Below the pieces are notes generated by a model. The model had not been told where the DNA came from and ran no database searches. It saw only the letters and a list, made by a program, of their open reading frames with translations. From the IMG/VR virus record IMGVR_UViG_3300042398_001353: a stretch of 64,000 nt of DNA; one strand, written 5' to 3'. The DNA is from a virus (Duplodnaviria; Heunggongvirae; Uroviricota; Caudoviricetes). Both the position numbers and the translations under genes were made by a program. The first letter of the stretch is position 1; every line of letters begins with the position of its first letter. Shown piece after piece: positions 23,420 through 37,675 of this stretch.

Positions 23420-24200
23420 CCCTATATGTTCACTTTTGTTCTCTGTTCACGATCCGTGAACAACGGTATTTTGTGAACACCAGCTTCCTGGTTTGGCGCG
23501 TTTTTACTTCTGTATTTGGCACAATAATAAGCCTTAAATCTGCACAATAGAAGTATGCCAAAAAGTCCATATTTATGCAAATATATGCATATAATACTGA
23601 CATAATTGGTACTGAAAACATCGTAGCTAATTTTATTGCGTTTAGAGCCCCGTTAGGGGCATTTTTTTGGCTGGCTGTATTACAATCGCAAAAAGTGGGA
23701 AAAAATGTTAATAAGTGGGAACCACCCAGGAAGTGTCCCTTGTGTGAATCACGACCCACAAAAAAAATTATTTGGAATTTATATAGTTTTATTTAAGCTC
23801 GCCCACCCCCATAAAGGGGTCGCGGGCTCGCCTGCTTGCACCGGCCGGTGTATGACAGGTCATTAAAAGTGTTTAATGTATGGGCCTAAAAGTTAAACAA
23901 AATAAAGGGGTGTCATACGGCTCCGCAGGACGAGCCCAGTATGGTACTGGGCGAGCCTATACTGGTGTCATACGCAATTTAAAATAGTTTTATTTAGAAT
24001 GCTCGCCGGTCAGTACCATACTAACCGGCTCGCTGTTGGACCGTCATACAGTGGCCCAGGTCATACGGCGCCCATAAGTCATACGCATAAAAAAACCCAG
24101 AGGGTTAGTCTGGGCGTGATACAGGGCGAGGACCAGTATGGTACTGGTCCGAGCATCTATTATTTTAAACTTATGTCTACTGCGATGTTGTCATACGGCT
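23420..24200. repeat. convergent non-coding region with iteron arrays (candidate ori/pac/regulatory)
   Basis: 7 copies of GTCATAC(G) (23850 inverted; 23912, 23967, 24043, 24060, 24078, 24190), ~8 copies of GCTCGCC/GGCGAGC, 4 copies of GTTCAC/GTGAAC (23440-23500), two near-identical hairpins ccagtatggtactgg (23934..23952, 24130..24150). Confidence 0.6.
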
Positions 24201-24858
24201 GCCACTCGATCGGGGAATAATCTCTGAGCATATCTTCTACGCTTCTCCTCATATCGTTTGGTGTTGGTGTTTTAGGATCTTTACCGTCATACGTGACTCT
24301 TACTTTGAATGTGATACCTGGAGCCAGAGTTTCCTGGTGTCTTTTGGCTGTACCGTTTGCTTGGTAGGTTATGGAAATTGGAACGCCGTCTATTGAGGTT
24401 ACATTTTTTTGAATGTACTTAATGAGTTTAACCATTTTATTTAAACGAACTTGGATCTTTCTGTTAACTTCTTCCAGGTCCATTTTTTTATTTAGATTTA
24501 TTTTAATTTTGTTCATTAGGGTGTTTAGTGATTGGAGGCCGAAGTCTTTTACTTTGTCAGCTCCCATGATCATACTACTGATCTCACCCAGGTGTTCATA
24601 CTCTTCCATGATGACCTTGTTGATCATCCACTCTGAGTCATCTATTGCTGTGCCGGCCACTTCTACTATGTGACCCATTGCGTACATGTATAAATCGACA
24701 CCTACGTAAGGTGGAATGTTTTCAATGAACAGTGAGACTGCTACAATGTTATCGTCTCCCAGAGATCCGGTTTTGATATAGATCCTGTATTGGTATGGTC
24801 CATCTTTGTAGACTACGCCGGCCAGTTGGCCAAAGTCTGGTTCTTGCTTTTCTTTCAT
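24160..24858 (-). CDS. hypothetical protein
   Basis: 232-aa ORF; first gene of the - strand block. Confidence 0.4.
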   Translation of the reverse strand: MKEKQEPDFGQLAGVVYKDGPYQYRIYIKTGSLGDDNIVAVSLFIENIPPYVGVDLYMYAMGHIVEVAGTAIDDSEWMINKVIMEEYEHLGEISSMIMGADKVKDFGLQSLNTLMNKIKINLNKKMDLEEVNRKIQVRLNKMVKLIKYIQKNVTSIDGVPISITYQANGTAKRHQETLAPGITFKVRVTYDGKDPKTPTPNDMRRSVEDMLRDYSPIEWQPYDNIAVDISLK

Positions 24859-24872
24859 AATATATAAATATT

Positions 24873-24905
24873 AAAAAAAGGGGATCCGATTCCTCAGGTC
24901 CCCTT
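24873..24905 (-). terminator. rho-independent terminator (- strand)
   Basis: aagggga/tcccctt stem with 14-nt loop; on the - strand it is followed by TTTTTTT. Confidence 0.5.
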
Positions 24906-24930
24906 CTTTGAACAAACATATAGATGAAGC

Positions 24931-25119
24931 TTATACCGCCGTCTTAAGAAGTGAGTTACGGTACATTACTGCAGCACGTTTAGAACTTAAGTTCTTGCTG
25001 TAGCGCTCTCCGTTAAGGATCATTCTTACACGATAGCTTGTGCCATCAAAGTAAATGTTTGGTCCCACTGACTTATAAACTGTCAATGGTGTGGATTTGG
25101 TTGTTCTTTGTTTTTTCAT
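24931..25119 (-). CDS. small basic protein (possible DNA-binding)
   Basis: Track ORF trimmed to the MKKQRTTKST start (25119); the 5' extension runs through intergenic sequence. Confidence 0.35.
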   Translation of the reverse strand: MKKQRTTKSTPLTVYKSVGPNIYFDGTSYRVRMILNGERYSKNLSSKRAAVMYRNSLLKTAV

Positions 25120-25192
25120 AACATTTATTAATTTATAATAAAATATACGAAAAAAATCTGGAATAAAAAAATCCTGGGGGAATATAATTAAT

Positions 25193-25819
25193 TTAATCTT
25201 CTTGCTTCGACTGCAGGAACTCGCAGTAGTTGCAGGACCCATCCGATTCTAGCTCGGCCCCGCATTCCATACAATCAGGTTCACCTTCCGATTCGTCATC
25301 GGCGGATTGATCAATGAATACTAGTTGAAGCGCGACCACTTTATCATCAACCTCAGCCCCATACACTGGATACATCCCGTCACCCCAGCCGCTGCTGCTA
25401 ACAGCTCCTGCGTCATACGCACCCCAGCCTGATTCACCTAAGGTAAACTTGCACATCTTCTCATACCAGGCGTCACCTTCTAGATCCCGTCCAGGTAATA
25501 CAAAGTCAACATATGGAGTTTGAATCGCTTCTGCAGCAGAATCATTCCTGTATGACGCCGCATCAAACACTCCCGCTTGGCCGCTGTCGACGCCGAAGTC
25601 CCCGAACCAGTCATACACAAGATCCTTGGTAATCTGGTGATCCTTGTGAACCAGGAATAGCTCAGCGTTCCTGTTGGTTCCCTGCTTCTCATCATAGATC
25701 ATTGAAACGATCCATTCACCAGGTAATACATTGGTTAGTTTGGTTTGGCACCAGGTTGGTACACTGTAGCAAGGGTCCGTTACATATACTTCGGGCCCTA
25801 GGTTAATTGTCTTTGTCAT
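25193..25819 (-). CDS. hypothetical protein with acidic Cys-rich C-terminus
   Basis: 208 aa; ...DDESEGEPDCMECGAELESDGSCNYCEF. Confidence 0.4.
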   Translation of the reverse strand: MTKTINLGPEVYVTDPCYSVPTWCQTKLTNVLPGEWIVSMIYDEKQGTNRNAELFLVHKDHQITKDLVYDWFGDFGVDSGQAGVFDAASYRNDSAAEAIQTPYVDFVLPGRDLEGDAWYEKMCKFTLGESGWGAYDAGAVSSSGWGDGMYPVYGAEVDDKVVALQLVFIDQSADDESEGEPDCMECGAELESDGSCNYCEFLQSKQED

Positions 25820-25866
25820 AGTAAAGATTTTAGATTAGGTGGAAAGTTAAGAATAATTTCTTGAAA

Positions 25867-26055
25867 TCAAAAATTTTTTTCTAATTGATATTCTTCCTTG
25901 GCATACATCTCCAGGTTGAAGTCATCTTCTAATTCATCCAGGATGTTGATGATGGCCTGGGCTTCAGCTTCGGTAAATTTAATACCCATTGCTTGACAGT
26001 ACTGGACATGAGTTCTTCTAGAATCAATCCATAGTTTTAAGATTTGCGGATTCAT
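25867..26055 (-). CDS. small acidic protein
   Basis: 62 aa; conserved start context AAATAAAACTATATG. Confidence 0.35.
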   Translation of the reverse strand: MNPQILKLWIDSRRTHVQYCQAMGIKFTEAEAQAIINILDELEDDFNLEMYAKEEYQLEKNF

Positions 26056-26066
26056 ATAGTTTTATT

Positions 26067-26321
26067 TTAAATGATTGTTGGTCCCATATAGTTTTCATTG
26101 AAGGCCCTTCTGTCTGGGACCGGTAAATCCTCAGCCGGTTCTTTAACATCGATCATCGCAACCGGTGTTGCGGTAATCATATCCGGCTGGTCCCATTCGT
26201 GGATCTCGAATACTGTAGCGATCCCGTTGACGACGCTGTCATACGCTTGCTGAGCAGCAGCCCTTGCATCCGGAGCATCGATGTCGATCTCCCATACAAC
26301 TCTATAAGATTTATCTTCCAT
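26067..26321 (-). CDS. small acidic protein
   Basis: 84 aa, D/E-rich. Confidence 0.35.
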   Translation of the reverse strand: MEDKSYRVVWEIDIDAPDARAAAQQAYDSVVNGIATVFEIHEWDQPDMITATPVAMIDVKEPAEDLPVPDRRAFNENYMGPTII

Positions 26322-26368
26322 TTGAAATAGTTTTATTTTAAATTAATAATTCCGATCCTTATGCCGGA

Positions 26369-26821
26369 TTAGAATTCCTCTGGCTTCTGCACATGGTATT
26401 CCCAATCTCTTTCATCCATATTATCCCAATACTCATCACGCTTCTGGTCATATTCTGGGTCGTCTTCGTCGCCATCATAATCTGGGGTTACATCTTCCAG
26501 GTAAGTTACTTCCAGGGTAACTACTTTATTCACCAGGTCAAAGATAACTCTACCTTCGGAGCCGTCGTTATTAAAATCTGGTGAACTCACCGCTCTATCC
26601 ATTATATCCCAGATGTATGTATCTGCTATGGAATAGAAATCATTTTCATCACGAGAGCCAGGCTCTATTACTTTTCCTTTAGAATCTTCAATAGTAAAAT
26701 CGAAGAATGAGTCAAAGCTATCACCAGAACCCTGGTATCCAACTGTAATTTTAGCCGCCGCTGGGAATCTTTCCTTAAGCTCTGCTATTGTTTCTTTCTT
26801 GGTCTTTCTTACTTCTGCCAT
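26369..26821 (-). CDS. highly acidic protein (DNA-mimic candidate)
   Basis: 150 aa; long D/E runs (DYDGDEDDPEYDQKRDEYWDNMDERDWEY). Confidence 0.4.
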   Translation of the reverse strand: MAEVRKTKKETIAELKERFPAAAKITVGYQGSGDSFDSFFDFTIEDSKGKVIEPGSRDENDFYSIADTYIWDIMDRAVSSPDFNNDGSEGRVIFDLVNKVVTLEVTYLEDVTPDYDGDEDDPEYDQKRDEYWDNMDERDWEYHVQKPEEF

Positions 26822-26840
26822 TTTAAAATAGTTTTATTTG

Positions 26841-27260
26841 TTAATCAATATACTCAATTTTAACTGTTTTCTTCTCCTGCTTAATTATTCCATCAGGGAA
26901 TCGGAGCTTGGCCGACGACGGTGCTTCTCCCATACCGTTGTTCATCCAGGGCTTGAGCTGCAAGTTCTCCAGCCAGTCCTGCGGCGTTGGAATATATCTC
27001 ATATGATAATCCTCCAAGATGTGAAGCTCGCAGATATCCTTAACGCTCACGCTTCTCCCGCTGGAGTTAGTTATATATTCACCATAGATGGGAATGATTA
27101 CCTCAAAGATAAAGAACATATTATGCGTGAGCAGCCTGTGCCTGTTATCAGGAAAATATTTCTTACTGCAATCCATCTTGGAATGTATCTCTACATAATC
27201 CTGTGGAACTCCTCCCCATTTCTTAACAGAGGACTGTGCGTGTATTAACGGTGTTGCCAT
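26841..27260 (-). CDS. hypothetical protein
   Basis: 139 aa; N-terminal TPLIHAQSSVKKWGGVPQDYVEIHSKMD looks family-conserved but is unidentified. Confidence 0.4.
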   Translation of the reverse strand: MATPLIHAQSSVKKWGGVPQDYVEIHSKMDCSKKYFPDNRHRLLTHNMFFIFEVIIPIYGEYITNSSGRSVSVKDICELHILEDYHMRYIPTPQDWLENLQLKPWMNNGMGEAPSSAKLRFPDGIIKQEKKTVKIEYID

Positions 27261-27261
27261 C

Positions 27262-27579
27262 TTATGCTGGGATTAAGGTGAAGAATTCAACTTTGATTCT
27301 TTCCAGAGGAGTTACAGCTGATGCATCCAGTTCTGGATTCTCAGGGTTGGTTCCGTAGATTAAGCCGTTACCTACAAACTCTCTACCATCCAGTATAAAT
27401 CCATAGTCAGTCCCGTTAATAAGACCTTCCTCGTCGACCCATAGAGTATCTCCATTCGGGTAGTATCTTCCAATCTCCACCATATTAACATCCAGGATTA
27501 AGTACTTGTCTTCCAGCTGTCCCTTATTTTCAACAATGGATACTTGGCGGTTCTTTGCGTCGATGAATATAGCTTTCAT
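27262..27579 (-). CDS. hypothetical protein
   Basis: 105-aa ORF. Confidence 0.35.
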   Translation of the reverse strand: MKAIFIDAKNRQVSIVENKGQLEDKYLILDVNMVEIGRYYPNGDTLWVDEEGLINGTDYGFILDGREFVGNGLIYGTNPENPELDASAVTPLERIKVEFFTLIPA

Positions 27580-27585
27580 ATAAAT

Positions 27586-27813
27586 CTATTTTAAATTCTT
27601 TTTAAATCTGTTAATTGGAAATCTCATCCCGTAGAAGACATCATTTCTGGTGAGTCCCTGCAATCGCATAATCTCCCAGTAGTTGTCATAAAGATAATCG
27701 CACCAAGTTTCTGTGCGCAGGGGTTTCTTTGGGTCGTTGTCCCATACACCTCGTTTGTCATATGCATACTTCACCCAGAATTCCATAAGTTCTCCTTTTG
27801 TTAGAGCTTTCAT
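27586..27813 (-). CDS. hypothetical W/Y-rich small protein
   Basis: 75-aa ORF. Confidence 0.3.
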   Translation of the reverse strand: MKALTKGELMEFWVKYAYDKRGVWDNDPKKPLRTETWCDYLYDNYWEIMRLQGLTRNDVFYGMRFPINRFKKNLK

Positions 27814-27998
27814 ATAGTTTTATTTAAAAGGTTATTCATCTTGTTGATTTCGGTATCCAGTAAACTGGTGAGCCTCTCCATTTCTTTCTTCCAGTCGTGG
27901 TGAGCTCGGCTTCTCTTATTTAGTTGTGGGAGCTTTAATGATTTCAGCTCCCTTAACTTCTGTTCGATTTGCTTCTTATTCTCCATGCTCGATTTCAT
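27810..27998 (-). CDS. small coiled-coil protein
   Basis: 62 aa, K/E/L-rich heptad-like. Confidence 0.3.
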   Translation of the reverse strand: MKSSMENKKQIEQKLRELKSLKLPQLNKRSRAHHDWKKEMERLTSLLDTEINKMNNLLNKTI

Positions 27999-28242
27999 AA
28001 CTTCCGCAGTTATAGTTAATGATGCTGAAGAACTTTAAGTATTTGATGCAAGTGTCATCAGCTCTGTTGATGGCTTCACGCAGATTGTTATCCACAATCG
28101 CTTGGGCAAAGCTACCACCCATTTGAACTTTATCACGAGTCATCAATACTGATGCTGCAACATCTATTGCGTGCTGCTCCTCAACTTTCCATCTTGCTGC
28201 CCATCTTTGCGCAGCCGCTTTGTACTTTGCTACTTTGTCCAT
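27976..28242 (-). CDS. hypothetical small protein
   Basis: 88-aa ORF. Confidence 0.3.
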   Translation of the reverse strand: MDKVAKYKAAAQRWAARWKVEEQHAIDVAASVLMTRDKVQMGGSFAQAIVDNNLREAINRADDTCIKYLKFFSIINYNCGSYEIEHGE

Positions 28243-28262
28243 AGTTTTAATTTTTTGTAATA

Positions 28263-28661
28263 TTAAGAAATGTTTTTTAATTCCACAAATAAAGTTTTCC
28301 CCATACTAACAATATTGTCATACGAAGCTCCGTCCACATTCTGTCCCCCGCATAACCAGTTCGGCTGCACGCGGGGATTATAAGATAGCTGCTCAAAATT
28401 CTTGAGCTGTGTAATACTTGGGCCTTCTAGATCTGTCAGGATGCTGATCTCATTGCAGAGAATCCAGGCACAGACACTTTTGTTCGCGCCCTGGTGAATC
28501 TTGTTAGCTGTTGACTTCTGGTTCTTCACCGTGCAGCCCGTCATACGCAGCTGTACAGCATCCGGGTTAATATATCTCGCCGGTTGTCCAGGGATGTCAA
28601 TCTTCCAGGTCATATAATTCTTACCGGCCGCCAGGTTAAATCTCACTTTAATTGATTTCAT
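28263..28661 (-). CDS. hypothetical protein
   Basis: 132-aa ORF. Confidence 0.35.
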   Translation of the reverse strand: MKSIKVRFNLAAGKNYMTWKIDIPGQPARYINPDAVQLRMTGCTVKNQKSTANKIHQGANKSVCAWILCNEISILTDLEGPSITQLKNFEQLSYNPRVQPNWLCGGQNVDGASYDNIVSMGKTLFVELKNIS

Positions 28662-28667
28662 ATAGTT

Positions 28668-28877
28668 TTATTTTAAAACTTCAAAGTGCTTGTTAAAAAA
28701 TTCTTCGCTAACAATTTTCTTTGCTTCCCTGTTTGCGATTTCATTACCAACTAATTTATCTCCACGCTTCGTAAACAGGACCGCCGCATCAGGCCAACCC
28801 CATACGCCGCCTTCGCGTAGTACATGAAGGATGTTAGTAAAGAATTCTTCGTTTGCTTTGATTTTATGCTTTTCCAT
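28668..28877 (-). CDS. hypothetical small protein
   Basis: 69-aa ORF. Confidence 0.3.
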   Translation of the reverse strand: MEKHKIKANEEFFTNILHVLREGGVWGWPDAAVLFTKRGDKLVGNEIANREAKKIVSEEFFNKHFEVLK

Positions 28878-28916
28878 TGTTTTAAGATTATGCAGTAAAG
28901 GTAATTGTTTTTCTTG

Positions 28917-29303
28917 TTATTCCAAAAAATTTTTTAACTTCTTTAAAAAGATTTGTTTTAAAAATTCTTCGTCCACATCTCCTGGTTTTAATTCGTCTGT
29001 CTTTCCCAGGTATTTCCTGAACTCTGTTTGCTTCCCGTTCACATTGAAGATGCATCTAGCATACGTGTAGTACGTGCCGGCCTTCTCAAGTTCTGTGTAG
29101 TAGATCTTCACATCCCTGGTGGATCTGATCTGTTTTAGCCGGTCGTTAACTATTTTGAAATCAGCCAGGAGCCTTTGTAATACCTGGTCCCTTTCCATGT
29201 GAACCAGGACTTTATTCCGCCTGGTTGTCCATCCCATTTTATCTAGCTCCGCCTCATCTACTTTACTCGGCTTCCTCACTAGCTTCGATAATTCATCTAA
29301 CAT
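28917..29303 (-). CDS. hypothetical protein
   Basis: 128-aa ORF. Confidence 0.35.
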   Translation of the reverse strand: MLDELSKLVRKPSKVDEAELDKMGWTTRRNKVLVHMERDQVLQRLLADFKIVNDRLKQIRSTRDVKIYYTELEKAGTYYTYARCIFNVNGKQTEFRKYLGKTDELKPGDVDEEFLKQIFLKKLKNFLE

Positions 29304-29656
29304 GATACTAATTGTTTGGTTATATAATTTTTTGATATGACAGCTCTGTGCACCATGGCCAGATCTTCCATCTTGAGATCACTATAAAAAACATAGCGAT
29401 CCGCGCCATCTTCATTAACAGCGATCAACTCATTTGTTGATCCGTCTATCCCTGTAATGATCACGTCTTCATTTCCGTTATGGATTGTGGGCCTGTAGTA
29501 TTGTACTGTACATTCGATCGGGTATTTAAACGCGATCTCAAATTCTTCTGGCTCCAGACGGTTATCTGTTATAACTGTACAAATAATTTCCTGGTGCATT
29601 CTATCCCTTAACCTGGTAATTTCATTTACGTAGTCCATATGTGTGTTTTTTTGCAA
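29297..29656 (-). CDS. hypothetical protein
   Basis: 119-aa ORF. Confidence 0.35.
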   Translation of the reverse strand: MQKNTHMDYVNEITRLRDRMHQEIICTVITDNRLEPEEFEIAFKYPIECTVQYYRPTIHNGNEDVIITGIDGSTNELIAVNEDGADRYVFYSDLKMEDLAMVHRAVISKNYITKQLVSC

Positions 29657-29658
29657 TG

Positions 29659-30429
29659 TTACAAAATATTTTCTTTGGATACAATAAACTTACTTTTAGA
29701 TAAATCTATTTTATTTCTCACCTTCTTATACTTTAGGCCGATCACTACCTTCCCAGGATCTTGATATCTCATATCATAAAGATCACCGTCAACAACTGGG
29801 ACGCCCCAATACTGTGCAGGAACCTCTTCGAATACTACAGCTACTCTGATCTCCTGCTCAAGGGCTAACAGTGATTCTGCAATGTTATTCCCGCTGAAGG
29901 AAAAAGTAATGTCATAGTTACTGTATTTCTTCGCCAGCTGTATACGCTTGAAGACTTTAGTATAATCATAGAACTGTACATCTGGAAACATCTCCAGGAT
30001 GTTTTTACCATCCAGGTGAAACTGTTCAGGGCTCAGGTCACTAGTACCGTTCAGCCGCACGCTAAAACTTTTGCCTGCTGCAATAGCTTTCTTCTGCGCG
30101 CTGCGTATTTCATCCTGCAGCCAGCCCATAAAGAATGCGCGCTGCTCAAAGAATAACTTTGTCTTTGTGATACGGGCTTTATTAATTGTATTCTCATGGA
30201 TATCGATTCTGTTATGTCCGCTCTCATTTAAGCAGGCTGTAGTACATTCAATGCTGCGCATTGGGCAAACTTCATAGCCGCTAGATTTAGCAGGAGCTAG
30301 ATAAAGGATGTAGGTCATCTCGTCATACTTCAGACCTTTGGCGATCTTTGAGCTAGTGTTGATCCCACCTAGGTAGCTCAGTCCTGTCATACGTTTCGCG
30401 TCCGCTTTGTTCTTGTAAGTCATAGTCAT
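29659..30429 (-). CDS. Cys-cluster protein (possible Fe-S or Zn binding)
   Basis: 256 aa; YEVCPMRSIECTTACLNESGHN (C-x6-C-x3-C). An in-frame ATG 13 codons downstream lies inside a CGTATGAC motif, so a 30390 start is possible. Confidence 0.4.
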   Translation of the reverse strand: MTMTYKNKADAKRMTGLSYLGGINTSSKIAKGLKYDEMTYILYLAPAKSSGYEVCPMRSIECTTACLNESGHNRIDIHENTINKARITKTKLFFEQRAFFMGWLQDEIRSAQKKAIAAGKSFSVRLNGTSDLSPEQFHLDGKNILEMFPDVQFYDYTKVFKRIQLAKKYSNYDITFSFSGNNIAESLLALEQEIRVAVVFEEVPAQYWGVPVVDGDLYDMRYQDPGKVVIGLKYKKVRNKIDLSKSKFIVSKENIL

Positions 30430-30445
30430 TTAAATTTAGTGTTCA

Positions 30446-30476: not shown

Positions 30477-30488
30477 AATATTTTTTTG

Positions 30489-30800: not shown

Positions 30801-30802
30801 AG

Positions 30803-31045: not shown

Positions 31046-31056
31046 ATAGTTTTATT

Positions 31057-31317
31057 TTAAATTACGCTGTTGATTAATTCTATCTGTGCTTCGAAGCCTG
31101 AATCGGTTCTGTCCCATTTACCTTCTAATGCCCATTCGGCATCCTCCTGTAGCGTAATTAACGCATCGACCAGCGGAATGGTACAGGAATCAAACACGTG
31201 GGAGTCCAGCGTGGTCATATCTAAAGGTAGCTCATCATTAACAGCTAACTCTACCAGAACAGCTTTTAACTTCTCATTGAAGTTCATAATCTTGAAATCT
31301 CTTTCTGTATTTTCCAT
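31057..31317 (-). CDS. small acidic protein
   Basis: 86 aa, strongly acidic. Confidence 0.35.
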   Translation of the reverse strand: MENTERDFKIMNFNEKLKAVLVELAVNDELPLDMTTLDSHVFDSCTIPLVDALITLQEDAEWALEGKWDRTDSGFEAQIELINSVI

Positions 31318-31323
31318 ATAGAT

Positions 31324-31515
31324 TTAATTTAAAAATTGAAGTTCTGGTTTACCCTCTACCACCATCCATTGACAATTGGATAATGAATAATCTAATCCGT
31401 TCTCATCATCCTCGATAAATTCCTCATAGTTGTCATCTGGACAATTTACTAAATCTAGCACATCTATCGTGCTGGTTTCAAAATTTAGGATTACTACAAA
31501 CATTTCTTTTTTCAT
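31324..31515 (-). CDS. small acidic protein
   Basis: 63 aa, D/E-rich. Confidence 0.3.
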   Translation of the reverse strand: MKKEMFVVILNFETSTIDVLDLVNCPDDNYEEFIEDDENGLDYSLSNCQWMVVEGKPELQFLN

Positions 31516-31526
31516 ATAGTTTTATT

Positions 31527-32360
31527 TTATTTTGTTTCTTCTTCTTTTTCTGCTGGTGTTATACCTTCTGGTAACTTCTCGAATTCTACATACCCATTAT
31601 TCTCATCATAGAATCTGTAGATATCATTCCAGCCAGTATATTTTAACTTCTGTCCATTCACCATATATTCCTTCCAGTGTTCCAGTCCAGCGACCTTCTC
31701 CATTTTATTCTTCTTCTTAGCATACTTAAGACCTTCTTTATACAAAGTATTAAATCTTTTTAATTCCTCAGCATTCAAGAAATCTAATTGCTTTAATGTT
31801 CTTTCATATGATTCTTTAATCTCAGCCATATCATCTTCAAACCAATATTCCATATTGTTATCAATTTCGTGCCAGAATAAATCTTCATCAATTCTGTATA
31901 TACCAGCATAGTAATCCAGACAGAATTCTTCCAGTACATCTCCATCATCTACTACCAACTTACCAGCATACCAGTCACCACTCTCATCATATGTGTGTTC
32001 AATATGTAACCTGTACTGGCTGGAGAGTAATTTAGCAAAACCTGTTACAGGACTCCAAGCAGAATCAAAACACATAGTGATGCATTCATCATCATCCTCA
32101 AGTACAGACATAAATTCCTCAGCAGACTTCTGCCACTTGCTACCATATACACGAATGTTATGCTCGTACCAGCCACCTTCTTCATTCCAGTCATCCTCTC
32201 TGCCCACCAGATAGTCATACGCACCTCCCCAGACTTTTGGGTTGGCTTTCATATCATCCTCCATAAACAGAAGTTTGGCTCTGAGTCTTTTGATTCCTTC
32301 TTGAGTAGTATCTGACTCTGAAGGGGTAATTGTCATTGAGTTGTTGCACCAATTTGGCAT
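31527..32360 (-). CDS. hypothetical W/Y/E-rich protein
   Basis: 277 aa; begins MPNWCNNSMTI. Confidence 0.4.
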   Translation of the reverse strand: MPNWCNNSMTITPSESDTTQEGIKRLRAKLLFMEDDMKANPKVWGGAYDYLVGREDDWNEEGGWYEHNIRVYGSKWQKSAEEFMSVLEDDDECITMCFDSAWSPVTGFAKLLSSQYRLHIEHTYDESGDWYAGKLVVDDGDVLEEFCLDYYAGIYRIDEDLFWHEIDNNMEYWFEDDMAEIKESYERTLKQLDFLNAEELKRFNTLYKEGLKYAKKKNKMEKVAGLEHWKEYMVNGQKLKYTGWNDIYRFYDENNGYVEFEKLPEGITPAEKEEETK

Positions 32361-32380
32361 AGTAGTATCGTTTAGGTGAG

Positions 32381-32411
32381 CAAATATAAACCTATTTTAA
32401 TTCCAAACAAA
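32381..32411 (-). promoter_or_regulatory. Bacteroidota-type promoter (- strand: TTTG-N19-TATATTTG)
   Basis: - strand TTTG ... TATATTTG, 21 nt upstream of ATG 32360. Confidence 0.4.
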
Positions 32412-32485
32412 TTTTTTTGTAATAATTTTTATTAAAAAGAAGACCGACCTATGACAATCGGTCTTCAGGGAACAACTAACCTTTA

Positions 32486-32866
32486 CTAACCTAACCTACC
32501 TTTTATTTGATGTAGTACGTATTCACCTTCTCTCTGATAACCCACGCTGAAGTCATCAGATTTTTTATCAATGAAACATATACCACGTAATTTCTTTCCA
32601 TCAGTATTCACTGATAGTTTACCCATAAATGAGTTAAAAGATTTTTCAAGCTTGTCTGACAAATCATTGTCATTATTAGTGATGACATATTTTGTACCGA
32701 ATCTTTTGAATCTAATTTTATGTCTCTCACTCTTCAGATCTTCAGCCAATAACTTCTTCAAGCCACCAAGTGATTTCTTGATAGTTGGTAAATCATTTGT
32801 CTTTTTTGTTGTCATACGAATTTTTATTTTGTGAATAACTTTGCAAAGATATGCAACTTTTTCCAC
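32486..32866 (-). CDS. basic protein (possible nucleic-acid binding)
   Basis: 126 aa, K/R-rich; alternative start MTTKKTNDL at 32815 inside a CGTATGAC motif. Confidence 0.35.
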   Translation of the reverse strand: MEKVAYLCKVIHKIKIRMTTKKTNDLPTIKKSLGGLKKLLAEDLKSERHKIRFKRFGTKYVITNNDNDLSDKLEKSFNSFMGKLSVNTDGKKLRGICFIDKKSDDFSVGYQREGEYVLHQIKGRLG

Positions 32867-33143
32867 ATATTGGCATTTGTTTAAAGTTTTTTATTTTTGG
32901 TTAAACAAAATAAAGTAGGTGGAACTGGGGGAAGTCCCACCCCTTTACCTAACCACCATTAACCACTATGAACAAAAAACAAAATAAAACTATTTTAAAG
33001 TCCCTCGACTAATGGGAGTAATACGAACCACGTTAACGCGAACCAGAATACTACCAATGCGAACGAACCATACATGTCCCAAAATTCTTTTCGATCATTA
33101 TACCAAAGGTCTTTCGACCCTTGATATAATTCTTTTAACATCT

Positions 33144-33521
33144 CTACCATCTTTGATTATTATAATTGTTATTATAATTGTTTCTCCTTTGGTTATTGTT
33201 ATAAGGTCTTTGCTGATAACCACCACCCATATTATTGGTATAGTCATTACGCAATCTCTCGTGGAAGTCTTCTCCACCACCCGCATCAACTTCAACCCAA
33301 TCATTAGTTTGGAATTCTCCCGCTAATGTGTTCTCTCCTAACTCCTTAATTGTTTGCAGTTCCTCATCCACAATAGCGAATGTATCGTTTTGGAAGTTTA
33401 TGCGTGTAGCATACTTCTGCGTTGTCTTTTCAAACATTCTAAATGCAGTAGTCATTTGGTCTAGATTCACTAGTGTTACCTTTCCCGTTTGAGTGTAAGT
33501 TAACTTGATAATAGTTGCCAT
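33144..33521 (-). CDS. protein with N/Y/Q/R-rich low-complexity C-terminal tail
   Basis: ...NNMGGGYQQRPYNNNQRRNNYNNNYNNQRW. Confidence 0.4.
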   Translation of the reverse strand: MATIIKLTYTQTGKVTLVNLDQMTTAFRMFEKTTQKYATRINFQNDTFAIVDEELQTIKELGENTLAGEFQTNDWVEVDAGGGEDFHERLRNDYTNNMGGGYQQRPYNNNQRRNNYNNNYNNQRW

Positions 33522-33556
33522 AATTGATAAAATTTAAAATTTAAAATAAAATTGTT

Positions 33557-33892
33557 TTAATTAAAAGTTTCATATGTGTTAACGAAGATTGGAGTCTGCT
33601 CTCCTACATATGCGCAAAAGGTATTGTACTCCAAGAATTCCCAAGCATCTTCCTCAGTCATCGGCTCTAAATCCGTTTTGTCTTTGGATTCCATAATGCT
33701 TTTATAATCCATCTCCAATAATAAGTGCACCATCCATTCTTTTGAATAAACTAATTGTCCGCCATCAGTTAATCCTATTATGGCTTTGTCATACCCATTA
33801 GGGTCGCCATCGAATCCATCGGGTTTAAGTGCTAAACAACTTTCAGCAGTTTCATTAACAATGTCTAAATCTACTTTGTGAGTATTTTCCAT
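33557..33892 (-). CDS. hypothetical acidic protein
   Basis: 111-aa ORF. Confidence 0.35.
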   Translation of the reverse strand: MENTHKVDLDIVNETAESCLALKPDGFDGDPNGYDKAIIGLTDGGQLVYSKEWMVHLLLEMDYKSIMESKDKTDLEPMTEEDAWEFLEYNTFCAYVGEQTPIFVNTYETFN

Positions 33893-33966
33893 TTGAATAA
33901 AATTGAATTAATAAATTAATGATGCAATATTACGAATTATTCTTGATATTAAAAAATTATTTTTAA

Positions 33967-34434
33967 TTAGAAGATTTCAAATCCTCCACAAACTTTTAAA
34001 AATGAAATAAATCTTTTTAAATGTCCAAGCGTTACGGAGTGAGATGCTTCAACCACATCGCCAGCTTTTGTGACAACGCTTGAATATAAGATTGTACCAT
34101 TAGGATACTGAACTGATATACCTTGCGGTCTTATTGATTGATTAGTATTGGTATCAATCCACATCCCTAAACAAACATACATTCGATCATCATCGCTTTT
34201 AAGAAACGGATGGTCTTTGATATGTCTTTCAAGTTTATCAGCCATCTTCATACAATCCTTTGCATTTAATCCGCTACCATCGTTATAACCCCAACGGCTC
34301 ATATCAAAATTAAGATTGTGTTTCATATTCAAATACTCACACAAGTAGTGAATAGGTCTCCAAGACCATAGGTTCGCGTGAAAAGTTTCACCATCAGTAT
34401 TGATTGGGTTTATACCCATTACATCCATTCCCAT
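33967..34434 (-). CDS. hypothetical protein
   Basis: 155-aa ORF. Confidence 0.35.
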   Translation of the reverse strand: MGMDVMGINPINTDGETFHANLWSWRPIHYLCEYLNMKHNLNFDMSRWGYNDGSGLNAKDCMKMADKLERHIKDHPFLKSDDDRMYVCLGMWIDTNTNQSIRPQGISVQYPNGTILYSSVVTKAGDVVEASHSVTLGHLKRFISFLKVCGGFEIF

Positions 34435-34438
34435 AATA

Positions 34439-34768
34439 TTATAGTTTAATTAAGTTAGCTAATTGAAATTCGAATTCTTCGCGCATTCCCTCCTCATCAT
34501 ATACTTTGATTGTTTCATCATCGTTTGGATGGTAGAATGCAATATCCACATTAATAGTGTTGCTCACAATCTTCTGCATAGTAATTGAATACTCCGTTTC
34601 GTGAATTGTATCCATATGCTGACTGCCGGCATATCTATTCTGCGAATGCACTACTACTGAGGAGTGAGAGCCAATCGGCTCCCATCCATCAGCGGACATT
34701 TCTTCTATCTTCTTATTCAAACTTGTGCTTGAACTTGCGGTAATGATTTTAATCTTCTTCATCTTCAT
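34439..34768 (-). CDS. DUF1737/DUF4177-like small protein
   Basis: ...EMSADGWEPIGSHSSVVV pattern (GWxPxG). Confidence 0.3.
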   Translation of the reverse strand: MKMKKIKIITASSSTSLNKKIEEMSADGWEPIGSHSSVVVHSQNRYAGSQHMDTIHETEYSITMQKIVSNTINVDIAFYHPNDDETIKVYDEEGMREEFEFQLANLIKL

Positions 34769-35183
34769 CAGTATTAAAGGTTAATTCACATTTGTTATTT
34801 ACTACTTCAATAATTTGTAGCAACCAATCCAATTGAGGAAATTGATAGATACGAACTGAATGCGTTTCTCCCGACTCAATCTCGTACATATGAATAAACA
34901 CTTCGGGGTCACCATCATCATCACGGCACGCACTCACCGAATGAATTTCATAATTGTCTTGTAGGATTAACTCTCCATCGTGGAAATTTAAACACGCATT
35001 TTTCATACTTGCATTATGAATTACTTTGGTAATTTCACCAAGATTAAGATTGGATATGTCATCCATACTAACTTGGTCTCTAACTGCTTTGGTCATAAGC
35101 ATCGCGAATACTGCTCTCTCGGTTTCTAATCCGTGCTTATAATAAGACTCACGAATTCCGTTTACAATTGGATTGATTTTCAT
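34749..35183 (-). CDS. hypothetical acidic protein
   Basis: 144-aa ORF. Confidence 0.35.
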   Translation of the reverse strand: MKINPIVNGIRESYYKHGLETERAVFAMLMTKAVRDQVSMDDISNLNLGEITKVIHNASMKNACLNFHDGELILQDNYEIHSVSACRDDDGDPEVFIHMYEIESGETHSVRIYQFPQLDWLLQIIEVVNNKCELTFNTDEDEED

Positions 35184-35194
35184 AATAATTAAAA

Positions 35195-35452
35195 TTAAAA
35201 GTTATTGATAAATTTTACATTTTCTTTGATGAAGTCCATCACCTTGTCTGCGTAATACGAACTCGTTAATTCATTTAGATATTGAATAATATCAAAATCT
35301 GCATCACGCATATTAACTCTAAATTCCCTACCCATTATTTTTTCTTTGGTAGTCCAATCAAGTGCATCAATATTGATTGTGTCACTTGTAGTACACACTT
35401 GGATAATTCCTCCGACTGCGTACTCTCCGATTTTAAATGTTTTCTTTGCCAT
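35195..35452 (-). CDS. hypothetical small protein
   Basis: 85-aa ORF with its own promoter. Confidence 0.35.
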   Translation of the reverse strand: MAKKTFKIGEYAVGGIIQVCTTSDTINIDALDWTTKEKIMGREFRVNMRDADFDIIQYLNELTSSYYADKVMDFIKENVKFINNF

Positions 35453-35473
35453 AGGTTAAATTGTTTTGTTTAG

Positions 35474-35504
35474 CAAAATTAAATAAAATTATTTAATTAC
35501 CAAA
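35474..35504 (-). promoter_or_regulatory. Bacteroidota-type promoter (- strand: TTTG-N19-TAATTTTG)
   Basis: - strand TTTGGTAATTAAATAATTTTATTTAATTTTG, 22 nt upstream of ATG 35452. Confidence 0.5.
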
Positions 35505-35505
35505 A

Positions 35506-35712
35506 TTATTTTTTTGGTTCATCAAGAATTCTATAAACATCGTCATACGGCTGAACTGCAAGGCTTGACCCATTGTCCCATTTAACGTGGATCTGCCCAA
35601 TGCCATCAATAGATTGTATTACCCCACGTGTCTTTGGTGGTGGTGCTTGCGGATCATCCATTTTAATGATCTCAATGATTTGACCGATCGGCCAGGTTTT
35701 TGACTTTTCCAT
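35506..35712 (-). CDS. hypothetical small protein
   Basis: 68-aa ORF. Confidence 0.3.
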   Translation of the reverse strand: MEKSKTWPIGQIIEIIKMDDPQAPPPKTRGVIQSIDGIGQIHVKWDNGSSLAVQPYDDVYRILDEPKK

Positions 35713-35734
35713 TTTTGATTTTATTTAAGGGTGA

Positions 35735-36085
35735 TTAATTATATTCATAAAGTTCTTGATTCCTTTCACAAACATATGCAAAACACGAACGCACATTCCA
35801 TATCAAATCTTCCTCCGTACTTTTTGCTAAACTTAACCAATCATCAGTAGACTCGAACTCGTCATACGCAAATTCCCATATCAAGTCTATAAGGTTGTAT
35901 CGGAAATTACCGATCGCTTTTTCATCCGTGATCAAAAGCCATTGGTAATACGTGATCATAGTATCGTGCAGATCATCCAATTCCTTATCGGTTAAAATAA
36001 ATTCATCGAATGTGGAGGAGTTAAACTTCCAAATTGATTCGGAAAATTCACCACGAGTGTATATCAAAGTTTTAGGATCTAACAT
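35735..36085 (-). CDS. hypothetical acidic protein
   Basis: 116-aa ORF. Confidence 0.35.
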   Translation of the reverse strand: MLDPKTLIYTRGEFSESIWKFNSSTFDEFILTDKELDDLHDTMITYYQWLLITDEKAIGNFRYNLIDLIWEFAYDEFESTDDWLSLAKSTEEDLIWNVRSCFAYVCERNQELYEYN

Positions 36086-36190
36086 AATGAATGCAATTTA
36101 TTTTATTCTAATTAAATTACCAAATATTTTTTTTGTAATAAGCAGATAGAAAAATAACCCGCACCCGTAATACGAATGCGGGGTAACTAC

Positions 36191-36436
36191 TTAGAACGGG
36201 GTTGGTATGCTTTTAACCAATTCAGCAAGGGACTGCGCTATCCTACTTAAAATTGGGTCTTTACTTTCAGTGTATCCAACATACTCACTTTTAGCATTAC
36301 CAGTGAAATAAGGAGTAGGCGGAACATATCCACGACTTACATTAAGTTTTTCCGCCCATTCATTAAAGGACAATTCGCTTTTGAACTTACTTGGTCTTAC
36401 CCTTAAATTTTCGGGTGCATTTACATTGTTGCTCAT
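36191..36436 (-). CDS. hypothetical small protein
   Basis: 81-aa ORF. Confidence 0.3.
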   Translation of the reverse strand: MSNNVNAPENLRVRPSKFKSELSFNEWAEKLNVSRGYVPPTPYFTGNAKSEYVGYTESKDPILSRIAQSLAELVKSIPTPF

Positions 36437-36521
36437 AATTGAAATAGATTTAATTTAAATTGTAATACGAAATTAATAAAAAATTGGATAGGGACAATAC
36501 ATCCCTACCCAATAATTTTTG

Positions 36522-37406
36522 TTAGCTAATCAGTTGACCTAATTCTGCAAACACTTCGCGCTCTCTACGGCCGTACACTCCGAACAATTTGTTCTCGTTG
36601 CTATCACCTTTTAATTGGTGAGTAGTGTACTTTGTAATACCTGAGAACAATCCCCAAAGGTTACCGCCCTTGTCTTGCACCTCGCCCATAATATTCACCT
36701 CCAAATCGGATAGGATATTTTTCTTGCGAGTAGATAGAGTAGACAAATCAGCTAAACGCTCCTCACCCTCTAAATTAAGGATGCGAGTTAAAGCCAAATC
36801 CTTAACGGATGCAAAGCCTTTTGATTTAAGGGATTTAAGTAATACGGCACTAGGCTCATTGATCGAAATAGAGTCCATCTTGATAATCTGCTCGAATATC
36901 TTTTCCTCCGCGCGTAGTACATCCTCAATCTGCATACAAATCAAATCGATTCGCTCGTGCATCTTTTGAGTATGACGCACTTTGTTAGCCATCTCGCGAT
37001 AGTTAGCAAAGAAAGTGTTTTGGCAAGAGATAGTAAGATTGCTATGGCCAAAAGCAAGTGAGGTAGAGCCATCAAAACTATTCACGCAAGTAAGATACCC
37101 TTTTACCATATCATTATTTACGCGCTGGTCTTTTGTCTTTAATTGAACATAGACCTTTTGGCCTTCGCCAAAATAACCTCCTTTGTGTAGAGGTAAATCC
37201 ATCTTACCACTAATGCGGTCAAGAATTTCCATCATCTCTAAATTCTGCAAAGGGTGATAACCCTTTCCGTGTACTCCAAGAATAGCATTATTATCCGTGC
37301 GGACAATAGCAATGCTATCCGTTTCGATGTTACTTTCTGCGGTAACTAATCGTTCGCCTTTAACGGCCCAATTCAAATTCGCTTGTTTTAAAATTGCATT
37401 TTGCAT
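36522..37406 (-). CDS. hypothetical protein (possibly phage/plasmid-like DUF932 family)
   Basis: 294 aa; size and N-terminal pattern reminiscent of DUF932, not verifiable by eye. Confidence 0.35.
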   Translation of the reverse strand: MQNAILKQANLNWAVKGERLVTAESNIETDSIAIVRTDNNAILGVHGKGYHPLQNLEMMEILDRISGKMDLPLHKGGYFGEGQKVYVQLKTKDQRVNNDMVKGYLTCVNSFDGSTSLAFGHSNLTISCQNTFFANYREMANKVRHTQKMHERIDLICMQIEDVLRAEEKIFEQIIKMDSISINEPSAVLLKSLKSKGFASVKDLALTRILNLEGEERLADLSTLSTRKKNILSDLEVNIMGEVQDKGGNLWGLFSGITKYTTHQLKGDSNENKLFGVYGRREREVFAELGQLIS

Positions 37407-37664: not shown

Positions 37665-37675
37665 TTTTAAGTATT

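Follow-up and report, generated by a model that had tools for sequence, protein, structure and literature searches.

A 13-kb block of small, often very acidic phage genes marked by a polar 8-mer: a putative host-takeover-type module

Organization of the small-gene block

In the 64,000-nt window (the whole stretch of DNA analysed, IMG/VR record IMGVR_UViG_3300042398_001353), a greedy ORF call places 33 back-to-back ORFs on the minus strand between positions 24160 and 37406, exactly the number which an earlier sequence-only reading had put at about 33 tiny genes. Genes called independently on four metagenome contigs show the same layout, the sole difference being the replacement of ORF 24931..25242 by a 62-aa gene at 24931..25119. 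This 13-kb block of small, often very acidic genes is genuine, and its presumed contrast to the flanking modules is borne out by protein length (median of 109 aa vs 174 aa in the flanks, p=1e-4) as well as by acidity, with a pI below 4.6 for 14 of 33 block proteins vs 7 of 76 flank proteins (Fisher p=1.3e-4). The higher GC content ascribed to the entire block, in contrast, applies to the 24-31 kb part (0.40-0.43; flanks 0.29-0.35), while the 31-37 kb half reaches only 0.35. Based on ORF calls, contig gene calls and regulatory class, the putatively early class comprises 32 co-oriented small genes of 51-294 aa (24931..37406, minus strand). Close metagenomic relatives are near-syntenic, and gene turnover is almost complete at about 54% GP88 identity. 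The proposed comparison with relatives for presence or absence of genes thus gave a highly plastic gene content, the pattern that an accessory or counter-defence region should show.

Predicted proteins and the question of anti-defence functions

Pfam matches in the block are exclusively of the DUF type (DUF932, DUF4314, DUF1281_C, GP88, DUF6915, DUF4241 and a weak DUF3846), and every PHROG match of block proteins is to 'unknown function'. Including DUF6878, which was assigned via distant homologues, eight genes have family matches. The first gene (36522..37406, like all following ones on the minus strand) encodes a 294-aa DUF932/TIGR03299 'phage/plasmid-like protein' (Pfam E=3e-21; NCBIfam) with 1818 homologues and 97% identity to its counterpart in the relative L002; fold comparison using its model (pLDDT 71) returned no informative match. 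Two other genes encode a 68-aa DUF4314 protein (35506..35712, Pfam E=7.6e-18) and an acidic protein of 277 aa (31527..32360) that contains a DUF1281_C domain (Api92-like ferredoxin-like; Pfam E=1e-9) and whose 21 homologues are all metagenomic. The 256-aa GP88-family protein (PF17338; 29659..30429, Pfam E=6.9e-33) had been described as a Cys-cluster protein; it possesses just three cysteines, which are invariant and arranged as CX6CX3C (alignment A4). This protein is probably an enzyme, and no relative with a solved structure was found for it. Further along lie a 139-aa DUF6915 protein (26841..27260, Pfam E=1.5e-34), the most acidic ORF (26369..26821; 150 aa, 27% D/E, net charge -23), consisting of a DUF6878-like core and a conserved acidic/aromatic C-terminal segment, and an acidic 208-aa DUF4241 protein (25193..25819, GC 0.49, Pfam E=2.9e-6). 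The small basic 62-aa protein (24931..25119, contig gene calls) adjoins the terminal array described below and is kept across the entire motif-bearing clade. It has no match in Pfam or PDB profiles and is a putative binding protein for the 8-mer.

Small, strongly acidic proteins of phages or plasmids that act early are exemplified by Ocr and ArdA, and the sequence-only reading had proposed the acidic proteins of the block to be DNA mimics of this kind. Such an anti-defence island, directed against restriction and including also anti-CRISPR or anti-CBASS genes, would agree with the strong enrichment of small acidic proteins, the early-type promoters and the fast gene turnover among relatives, and DNA mimics are encoded by the early modules of other phages (PMC8208478, PMC8892312). 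None of the block genes, however, has a match to Ocr, to ArdA or to a family annotated as anti-defence or defence in Pfam, NCBIfam, PHROG or PADLOC, and sequence comparison with solved structures gave no match. Structure prediction, which had been suggested as a check for mimicry, was carried out for one candidate, ORF 26369..26821, and gave a confident compact alpha/beta model (DUF6878-like) with no resemblance to either Ocr or ArdA. In addition, the known acidic early proteins of Bacillus phage SPO1 act on targets other than defence systems: Gp44 targets RNA polymerase and Gp46 targets HU, so acidic early proteins can equally be aimed at such host factors (PMC8208478, PMC8892312). As no gene matches an annotated family of this type, an anti-defence island is at present a rather doubtful description of the block.

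Promoters, terminators and regulatory classes

Three perfect Bacteroidota-type promoters of the form TTTG-N19-TAnnTTTG are located in intergenic minus-strand DNA: one at 35474..35504 in a repeated 43-nt cassette (family D3), one at 32381..32411 immediately past a terminator, and one at 30446..30476 that is near-identical to the first. All three had been recognised before, together with a fourth at about 36094, which turned out to be a degenerate copy of the cassette (36094..36141, minus strand, family D7) with two mismatches in the -7 element. An additional perfect match at 34305 is intragenic, and the left flank has a few host-type promoters as well (10405, 12572). Intrinsic-terminator-like hairpins on the minus strand follow the DUF932 gene (36483..36513) and occur at 36158..36182, with a copy of CGTATTAC inside, at 32917..32942, at 32439..32466 and, as the last of the block, at 24095..24115, where the terminal motif array begins 10 nt past the T-run.

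The conserved leader AAATAAAACTAT-ATG precedes 10 block genes and one gene outside, whereas the upstream element TATTTATATA is found ahead of about 13 genes in the flanks, but in the block ahead of the last gene only (0 of the 32 others). The block is therefore a separate regulatory class with host-type promoters and terminators and a leader of its own, and this distinct class agrees with early transcription by the host polymerase, a timing that we infer from promoter types. The TAnnTTTG consensus and the absence of Shine-Dalgarno sequences are traits of Bacteroidota (PMC9723704, PMC6847099); these signals point to a host of that phylum.

The exception, a 232-aa gene on the minus strand (24160..24858; inverted repeats I7, I8 and I10), lies after a terminator and bears the flank-type element upstream, which corrects its earlier assignment together with the rest of the block. 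This gene shares only 45% identity with its counterpart in L002.

A polar 8-mer confined to the block

The most unusual feature of the block is GTCATACG, a motif which the sequence-only reading had rightly described as confined to this region, yet undervalued. It occurs 15 times within 23912..35868, exclusively on the plus strand (starts at 23912, 23967, 24060, 24078, 24190, 24286, 25412, 26238, 28317, 28540, 30386, 32214, 32811, 35542 and 35861), compared with a chance expectation of 0.54 and a maximum of 3 among 100 shuffles. Together with the variant GTAATACG (plus-strand starts at 30551, 33018, 35252, 35945, 36167, 36462 and 36839), 22 copies span 23912..36846, with none on the opposite strand and none in the remaining 50 kb of the window, including its other minus-strand gene clusters. 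Read on the gene-sense (minus) strand, the consensus is CGTAT[G/T]AC with one degenerate position. Copies appear at a density of about one per kb and at least once in every transcription unit, in all three reading frames as well as in intergenic DNA, uniformly distributed within genes, and some of them directly past or within terminators. The first copy follows a promoter at a median distance of 170 nt vs 611 nt for random positions, a statistic that derives mostly from three orthologous promoters in relatives which are not independent. Of the copies, four to seven are located beyond the last terminator and two inside the flank-type gene 24160..24858.

Across the clade (18 loci), 253 sense sites stand against almost no antisense ones, while 432 kb of more distant loci contain 8 sense and 6 antisense sites, i.e., background counts. 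In nine close relatives, 71-88% of the sites are retained, compared with 13-48% for background 8-mers; in two relatives of about 70% identity, 2 of 4 sites are retained. Terminal arrays of 4-7 copies exist in all relatives, and polarity, density and terminal array are kept clade-wide even where the genes differ. We read the 8-mer as an undescribed polar cis-element that is a property of the region rather than of individual genes.

Short length (8 nt), strict polarity, strong over-representation, frame independence and a single degenerate position are the defining properties of Chi, and Chi-like recognition is the principal competing explanation for the 8-mer. A RecBCD/AddAB-type helicase-nuclease of host or phage, entering from a nearby DNA end, would recognise the 8-mer on one strand and stop degrading; early DNA that enters first would thereby gain protection in cis, and the plastic region would experience stimulated recombination. 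The many copies and the dense terminal array would permit cumulative recognition, selection on sites that nevertheless turn over and persist through gene change is in line with it, and the copies past the terminator and inside gene 24160..24858, with its flank-type promoter, suit a role at the DNA level. Chi and polar 'architecture' octamers such as KOPS, which resemble the 8-mer in being 5-8 nt long, strongly over-represented, strand-polar, frame-independent and present in many copies, are distributed genome-wide on bacterial chromosomes and oriented with replication. The 8-mer, unlike these, is limited to one 13-kb phage region ending in a dense array, and a Chi-like role requires the extra assumption of a physical genome end adjoining the block. 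Clusters of contig ends are indeed seen at about 38.9-39.07 kb and 23.38-23.42 kb, but they are equally well explained by a low-complexity tract and by a repeat with an HNH-gene indel. Moreover, the distant phage loci show background counts only, and the promoter-proximal bias is left unexplained. A Chi-like function of the 8-mer is accordingly judged rather unlikely.

The terminal array and the untranslated region

The minus-strand terminal array (23912..24085) is non-coding and consists of four exact and two degenerate 8-mers placed in the linkers between GC-rich hairpins. It lies in an untranslated region of 770 nt (23390..24159; alignment A1, repeats), in which the hairpin/motif array is followed by two copies of TTCCCAC, two to three copies of GTGCCAAA..CGGAAGT, four copies of TGTTCAC/GTGAACA and finally an AT-rich palindromic patch. 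This region is 85-94% conserved, while the adjoining gene is only 45% identical. No match was obtained in Rfam (E<=5) or by blastn in phages, and no DnaA boxes are present in it. The array surpasses shuffled controls in folding (z about -3.9), but the palindromic hairpins let either strand fold as well as the other, so that folding does not establish a structured RNA. In divergent relatives, the hairpin sequences differ and the hairpin-linker layout is kept.

A related arrangement is known from phage T5, where the small pre-early host-takeover genes of the first-step-transfer DNA adjoin a large untranslated 'injection stop signal' region, conserved among relatives and containing repeats, inverted repeats, palindromes and ordered short boxes (bioRxiv 10.1101/866236). 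By analogy, the 770-nt region might be a replication origin or a T5-like injection-stop/regulatory hub, in which the 8-mers would act as iteron-like or DnaA-box-like boxes for an initiator or anchoring protein, with the scattered copies as auxiliary or titration sites. Conservation above that of neighbouring genes, the repeat families, inverted repeats and AT-rich patch beside a gene of the other promoter class, and the shared layout of a small-gene block next to a conserved repeat-rich untranslated region speak for this possibility. The boxes of T5, however, are DnaA boxes restricted to the untranslated region, whereas DnaA boxes are absent here and the 8-mer is also strewn, strictly co-oriented, over 13 kb of coding sequence, an orientation that boxes for a protein binding double-stranded DNA do not need. 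Furthermore, the adjacent 232-aa gene is 45% conserved and the array 90%. The likeness to T5, whose DNA enters in two steps, is one of sequence layout. An origin or hub is quite unlikely.

CsrB and RsmZ are sponge RNAs for CsrA. A non-coding RNA from the array, either an antisense silencer whose 4-7 single-stranded GU[C/A]AUACG seeds would pair with CGUAU[G/U]AC in all early mRNAs or a sense, CsrB/RsmZ-like sponge for an 8-mer-recognising RNA-binding protein, would make use of the linker position of the 8-mers between stable hairpins, the folding above shuffled controls, the persistent layout and the occurrence of the 8-mer in every transcription unit, but it is very improbable given that no conserved promoter was identified on either strand (relatives do not conserve the flank-type element at about 23776), that the palindromic hairpins fold equally on both strands, that the seven T-variant sites of the window lack a perfectly complementary seed in the array and that an Rfam match is absent.

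A putative host-takeover module with a polar signal

Among the closest known counterparts of the block is the host-takeover module of SPO1 (genes 37-60). Its roughly 12-13 kb hold about two dozen small genes, most of them without a known function, which the host polymerase transcribes early from several strong promoters, and its products include very acidic proteins directed at DNA-binding proteins of the host (PMC8208478, PMC8892312, PMC6873191; Stewart et al. 1998, cited therein). Block size, small genes, multiple promoters, very acidic proteins and presumably early timing are shared, while the two are unrelated in sequence and differ in host phylum and promoter type. The module of SPO1 sits in the terminal redundancy. 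To our knowledge, no polar 8-mer or terminal array has been described for SPO1. A short, directional signal that is read by early machinery only via a virus-encoded factor is the vaccinia early-gene termination signal TTTTTNT (U5NU), which is avoided within early genes and used at their ends. The 8-mer, in contrast, is enriched within the early region, and virus and host are unrelated.

Among the options for the 8-mer, we tentatively prefer, at somewhat less than even odds, that it is read directionally during host-polymerase transcription and used by a phage factor acting on early transcription. The form in which it is read could be non-template DNA, nascent RNA or an asymmetric site occupied by a protein; a purely RNA-level signal of early transcripts fits poorly because of the copies past the last terminator and in the flank-type gene. 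No candidate for the reading factor was identified through family or structure matches, the 62-aa basic protein included.

Taken as a whole, the block is best explained, with a probability of roughly 0.55, as an early host-takeover-type accessory module of an uncultured freshwater phage that is transcribed by the host RNA polymerase and marked by a polar cis-element. About 32 small genes would form 8 or more short transcription units, each running from a Bacteroidota sigma-A-type promoter cassette to a hairpin terminator, and would be expressed immediately upon infection. Their products, many of them compact and strongly acidic, would most plausibly bind and neutralise host proteins, possibly including defence nucleases. 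Through the 8-mer, the phage factor would stop or otherwise control early transcription, such that promoter-proximal copies may shut the units off and the terminal array may insulate the convergent neighbouring module.

Layout, composition and genomic setting of the block

A mechanical ORF call places 33 contiguous minus-strand ORFs at 24160-37406, with plus-strand modules on either side, and the same genes were called independently on four metagenome contigs of identical or near-identical sequence, with the one difference that 24931..25242 of the ORF call corresponds to a 62-aa gene at 24931..25119 in the metagenome gene calls. The median length of the block proteins is 109 aa versus 174 aa for the 76 flank proteins (p=1e-4), and a pI below 4.6 is found for 14 of the 33 block proteins versus 7 of the 76 in the flanks (Fisher p=1.3e-4). 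The basic observation of the sequence-only reading, a block of about 33 tiny minus-strand ORFs of which many are acidic, is thus confirmed by ORF calls and flank statistics. Its claim of a higher GC content holds for 24-31 kb (0.40-0.43) but not for 31-37 kb (0.35), with 0.29-0.35 in the flanks; the two minus-strand genes 25193-25819 and 26067-26321 reach 0.48-0.49, with about 0.33 for the genome. Since relatives share the higher GC at 24-31 kb, any foreign origin would be older than the split of the clade, i.e. of those relatives that bear the 8-mer motif described below.

Close relatives of the window were not detected among 50,697 GenBank phage records (megablast, blastn, tblastn), these searches returning distant DUF932 matches alone. 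Relatives are plentiful in metagenomes, on contigs of about 85 kb to more than 300 kb, and the related contigs originate from freshwater lake metagenomes. The left flank encodes exonucleases, phosphoesterases, HNH endonucleases, a serine recombinase-like protein and a 1026-aa M23-peptidase protein, and the right flank lysins together with mostly unknown proteins. The serine-recombinase/invertase-like gene (PHROG 125/95; 18973-19635, plus strand) lies in a phage that otherwise looks virulent. A tRNA search of the window gave no hit.

Gene turnover among relatives

An IMG/VR contig (loci L001/L002) is collinear with 38879..23416 of the window at 73-88% nucleotide identity. Gene order is unchanged for 32 of the 33 genes, whose products are 45-97% identical in amino acids; the contig lacks the 63-aa acidic ORF 31324..31515 and has two small insertions. 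Altogether, 20 loci were compared and graded by the identity of their GP88 protein (29659-30429 in the window). At 93% identity or above, only single genes are gained or lost; at about 79%, replacement or relocation affects some half of the genes; and at about 54% (L072-L076), only GP88, DUF932, DUF4241 and a few others are left. This graded turnover marks the block as an accessory, fast-turnover compartment, and the hypervariability that had been proposed for it was thereby corroborated, up to near-complete gene replacement.

Promoters, terminators and regulatory classes

Three gaps between genes contain a perfect TTTG-N19-TAnnTTTG promoter on the minus strand (30446, 32381 and 35474); a fourth one proposed earlier, at ~36094, turned out to be a two-mismatch variant. 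The promoters belong to a 43-nt cassette, one repeated unit found at 30446, 32377 and 35474, with weaker copies at 36108 and 37546. Six terminator-like hairpins (36513-36483, 36182-36158, 32942-32917, 32466-32439, ~24905-24875 and 24115-24095), followed by promoters, split the block into at least eight short units. The leader AAATAAAACTAT stands immediately before the ATG of 10 block genes, versus one doubtful case outside. A second element, TATTTATATA, is found upstream of about 13 flank genes, 2-25 nt before the start codon, and within the block before the last gene only (genes at 5129(-), 10998, 24858(-), 40587, 41722, 43281, 45573, 47855, 50446, 59963(-), 59999 and 63552(-)). It probably serves as promoter to a second transcription class, middle or late, whose leaders are very short. 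The last block gene, 24160..24858, follows a terminator, carries TATTTATATA and is the least conserved of all (45% identity in L002). Block-specific leader, host-type promoters and absence of TATTTATATA hence define 32 genes as one regulatory class and the rest of the window as another. From these signals we infer that the block would be expressed early by the unmodified host polymerase; a few host-type promoters are present in the left flank too (10405, 12572).

A Shine-Dalgarno sequence precedes none of the genes, and leaders are A-rich. In Bacteroidota, TAnnTTTG promoters and initiation without Shine-Dalgarno sequences are the rule (PMC9723704, PMC6847099), so promoter type and leaders suggest a Bacteroidota host. 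A scan of a bacterial genome collection for the host gave one distant, uninformative match in an alphaproteobacterial MAG.

Another feature of the flanks is an N-terminal peptide, roughly (M)K.I.ITE(S/E)Q(L/F/Y)..L, with which 11-13 flank proteins but no block protein begin (gene starts 1518, 5129(-), 42532, 45573, 49223, 50446, 51378, 53459, 54429, 55652, 59963(-) and 59999), the 1026-aa M23-peptidase protein being one of them. It could be a targeting signal, a propeptide or an N-terminal domain, e.g. for virion packaging.

The block is compact and made up of many small genes in one orientation, most of them of no known function, with host-type promoters and terminators and with regulatory signals unlike those of the rest of the genome. 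It thereby resembles the host-takeover module of SPO1 and the pre-early region of T5, which hold many small early genes under host promoters, along with acidic proteins directed at DNA-binding proteins of the host (PMC8208478, PMC8892312, PMC6873191, bioRxiv 10.1101/866236); it is homologous to neither. Judged from these sequence features, it is likely an early accessory or host-takeover region, which bears out part of the sequence-only interpretation; the anti-defence role proposed there is hypothetical.

Block proteins and DNA mimicry

A Pfam scan of all 33 block proteins (E<=0.05) matched DUF-type families only: DUF932 (36522..37406; also TIGR03299, the sole NCBIfam match), DUF4314 (35506..35712), DUF1281_C, Api92-like (31527..32360), GP88 (PF17338; 29659..30429), DUF6915 (26841..27260), DUF4241 (25193..25819) and, below threshold, DUF3846 (27262..27579). 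Additional Serglycin matches were discarded as an artefact of Gly-Ser linkers in the query. Every PHROGs match of the block proteins is to a family of 'unknown function', PADLOC reported nothing on them, a PDB sequence search with all 33 gave no match, and neither did PDB profile searches with DUF932, GP88 and the 62-aa basic protein. The publications retrieved mention these DUF families incidentally and give no function, and an exact-protein lookup of a GP88 homologue returned no record. The model of the DUF932 protein is of medium confidence and gave no informative match.

What had been described as a Cys-cluster protein (29659-30429, minus strand) is this GP88 family member, and instead of a cluster it has three invariant cysteines. 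An alignment of 31 diverse phage sequences shows CX6CX3C, R86, K89, R125, N127, T129, D131 and QFYDY to be invariant, and such cysteines and polar residues suggest an enzyme or a metal/cluster site, not a mimic. GP88 homologues also occur on contigs of jumbo-phage size (about 300 kb).

The sequence-only reading had further interpreted the acidic ORFs as DNA mimics of the Ocr/ArdA type. Small proteins of strong net negative charge, as are Ocr and ArdA, do occur (the 14 of 33 with pI below 4.6). However, none of the 33 matches Ocr, ArdA or any other annotated anti-restriction family in Pfam, PHROGs or NCBIfam, and a B-DNA-mimic fold was not found in the one candidate modelled for this purpose, so this part of the reading is not upheld by the sequences or by that model. 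The structure prediction that it had called for was run on the most acidic ORF, 26369..26821 (150 aa, 27% D/E, net charge -23), which has 37 homologues, all of them metagenomic. Their alignment comprises a globular core with an invariant PDFNNDGSEG and a strongly conserved acidic/aromatic C-terminal segment (residues 108-150) ending in PEEF, or PEIF/PEVF in relatives; more distant homologues are DUF6878 proteins of about 113-118 aa without the acidic end. The AlphaFold2 model (pLDDT 88.5, pTM 0.76) is compact, its C-terminal segment packing back as a helix and a strand. With a DUF6878-like globular core and a confident packed model, DNA mimicry is left without support for its best candidate. 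The C-terminal segment loosely resembles the acidic, aromatic-ended C-terminal tips of single-strand-binding proteins; a protein inhibitor is possible but weakly indicated.

A strand-polar 8-mer confined to the block

The octamer GTCATACG occurs 15 times in the window (expected 0.54), always on the plus strand and always within 23912..35868, in line with the earlier claim that it is confined to the block region. Seven more copies on the same strand and with the same confinement are contributed by the one-mismatch variant GTAATACG, other variants not being enriched. Read in gene sense as CGTAT[G/T]AC, the motif thus counts 22 sense and 0 antisense copies, with none in the other 50 kb. The other minus-strand clusters of the window (51.6-52.6, 56.1-60.0 and 62.3-64.0 kb) are part of these 50 kb, which rules out a general trait of leftward genes. 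Over the clade, copies fall in each of the three frames as well as between genes (60/77/35/55); an extended consensus is lacking, positions inside genes are uniform (KS p=0.47), and 12 of the 33 block genes contain a copy. A peptide-level or translation signal is hereby ruled out, and the 8-mer is to be regarded as a nucleic-acid signal acting at the level of the region instead of the single gene.

All relatives down to about 53% GP88 identity carry the 8-mer roughly once per kb in sense and hardly ever in antisense; in more distant loci (432 kb), 8 sense and 6 antisense copies were counted. In nine close relatives, 71-88% of the window's 8-mer sites are kept, compared with 13-48% of background 8-mers fully conserved, and two relatives of about 70% identity keep 2 of 4 sites. 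Relatives bear copies at new positions too, and L076, a locus with almost no genes in common with the window, has 19 sense copies. The 8-mer has the formal properties of Chi or KOPS-type octamers, but its occurrence is limited to one phage region, at whose end it forms an array. A literature search for polar octamers in phage early regions returned nothing relevant, and no such arrangement is described in the limited literature covered.

Terminal array and conserved untranslated region

A dense cluster of the motif (4-7 copies per 300-400 nt) closes its distribution in all relatives, lying in non-coding DNA between the last gene and the convergent genes. The corresponding array of the window (23912..24085) begins 10 nt past the T-run of the last terminator; its GC-rich hairpins are separated by linkers that hold four exact copies of the motif and two degenerate ones. 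In the more divergent relatives, hairpin sequences differ and the hairpin-linker layout is retained. The array is part of an untranslated region of 770 nt (23390..24159), which is 85-94% conserved where the adjacent gene is merely 45% identical. This region additionally contains TTCCCAC (two copies), GTGCCAAA..CGGAAGT (two to three), TGTTCAC/GTGAACA (four) and an AT-rich palindromic patch, and it has no match in known phages.

A possible small RNA gene inside this conserved region, at ~23565-23667 (plus strand), combines a promoter-like AT-rich palindrome, ATGCATATATTTGCAT, with a terminator about 60 nt further on, GCCCCGTTAGGGGC plus T7, the stem of which varies in sequence among relatives. 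A 37-nt hairpin-forming repeat is present in two copies of 95% identity (13363-13399 and 23388-23424), the second of which is the exact end of homology with relatives as well as the end of two metagenome contigs. The adjoining HNH-endonuclease gene (22709-23389) is missing in L002, which suggests a mobile endonuclease insertion.

What the 8-mer may do

Strict polarity implies that the 8-mer is recognised either in single-stranded form, as RNA or as DNA, or by a machine that works directionally. It is tied to transcription of the block by its confinement to a co-oriented, host-promoter-driven region, by its presence in each transcription unit, with one copy or more, and by its distance from promoters. 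The median from promoter to first copy is 170 nt downstream versus 611 nt for random positions, a figure which includes divergent relatives with different promoters and relatives that are not independent of each other. Several copies stand inside terminators or shortly behind them (24078, 36462, 36167), and the final terminator is closely followed by the array. A factor-dependent polar stop or insulator signal for the host polymerase would account for confinement, per-unit copies, promoter proximity and the placement at terminators and in the array; it is the likeliest option, to be taken as tentative and at odds below even. Promoter-proximal copies would then switch off the early units, and the terminal array would shield the convergent module.

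Alternatively, the 8-mer may be a Chi-like signal, as it is a short and over-represented word, bound strictly to one strand and independent of reading frame. Polarity, density, frame-independence, turnover and copies outside early transcripts fit this explanation equally well. The early modules of SPO1, T5 and T7 are located at the genome end that enters first, and a Chi-like signal would require a DNA end adjoining the block. Contig ends of relatives do cluster near both block borders, yet they are explained equally well as assembly breaks, at a low-complexity tract and at a repeat with an HNH indel, and were set aside as proof of genome termini. The tract in question, C-rich CCCCTCCCCTCCCTCCCCTCC at 38955-39030, adjoins a terminator-like hairpin, the two sharing a 190-nt gap between genes, and three independent metagenome contigs begin within about 200 nt of it.

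As a further rival, the copies could be origin-like binding boxes or boxes resembling those of the T5 injection-stop region. As in T5, where a conserved untranslated repeat region adjoins the early genes (bioRxiv 10.1101/866236), the block is bordered by a large untranslated region that is conserved and contains repeats, inverted repeats and palindromes; the ordered DnaA boxes that define the T5 region are, however, missing in 23390..24160 (TTATCCACA, up to one mismatch), and window-wide matches are at chance level. Finally, the array might be a multi-seed or sponge RNA. Rfam gave no hit in the whole window at gathering thresholds and nothing in 23300..24300 even at E<=5, and both array strands fold equally (z ~ -3.9), so that structure alone identifies neither an RNA nor a strand.

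The only partner of the 8-mer that could be pointed to is the 62-aa basic protein (24931..25119), a candidate by virtue of its position, as it adjoins the array and is conserved over the whole motif clade. An AP2/Arm-like DNA-binding domain in this protein found no support from Pfam or PDB profiles, and neither a protein family nor a solved structure related to it was detected.

Taken together, 8-mer and array may constitute a previously undescribed, region-confined polar cis-element which would define and control the early region of a widespread clade of phages from freshwater, with Bacteroidota as putative hosts, independently of its gene content, a reading to which we assign a probability of roughly 0.45. 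Such an element might be a factor-dependent directional stop or insulator for the host polymerase, or else a phage-borne Chi-like 'self' mark guarding the first-entering DNA.

Implications for early regions of uncultured lake phages

As a gene set, the block is of a familiar kind, and the polar 8-mer system is its new part. Early accessory regions are where phages gather host-takeover and counter-defence genes, and this one supplies about 30 compact proteins without known function from abundant uncultured lake phages, with DUF932 and GP88 among the families recurring in other phages. The 8-mer is strictly directional, selected for and confined to the block, and it outlasts complete replacement of the surrounding genes. 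If it is a transcription-control signal, it would show how a Bacteroidota phage turns off or insulates its early genes, for which we know of no mechanism. If it is Chi-like, it would amount to counter-defence in cis, and the host group's own Chi sequence might be deduced from it. In both cases, the 8-mer affords a simple sequence signature to find early regions in related metagenomic phages.
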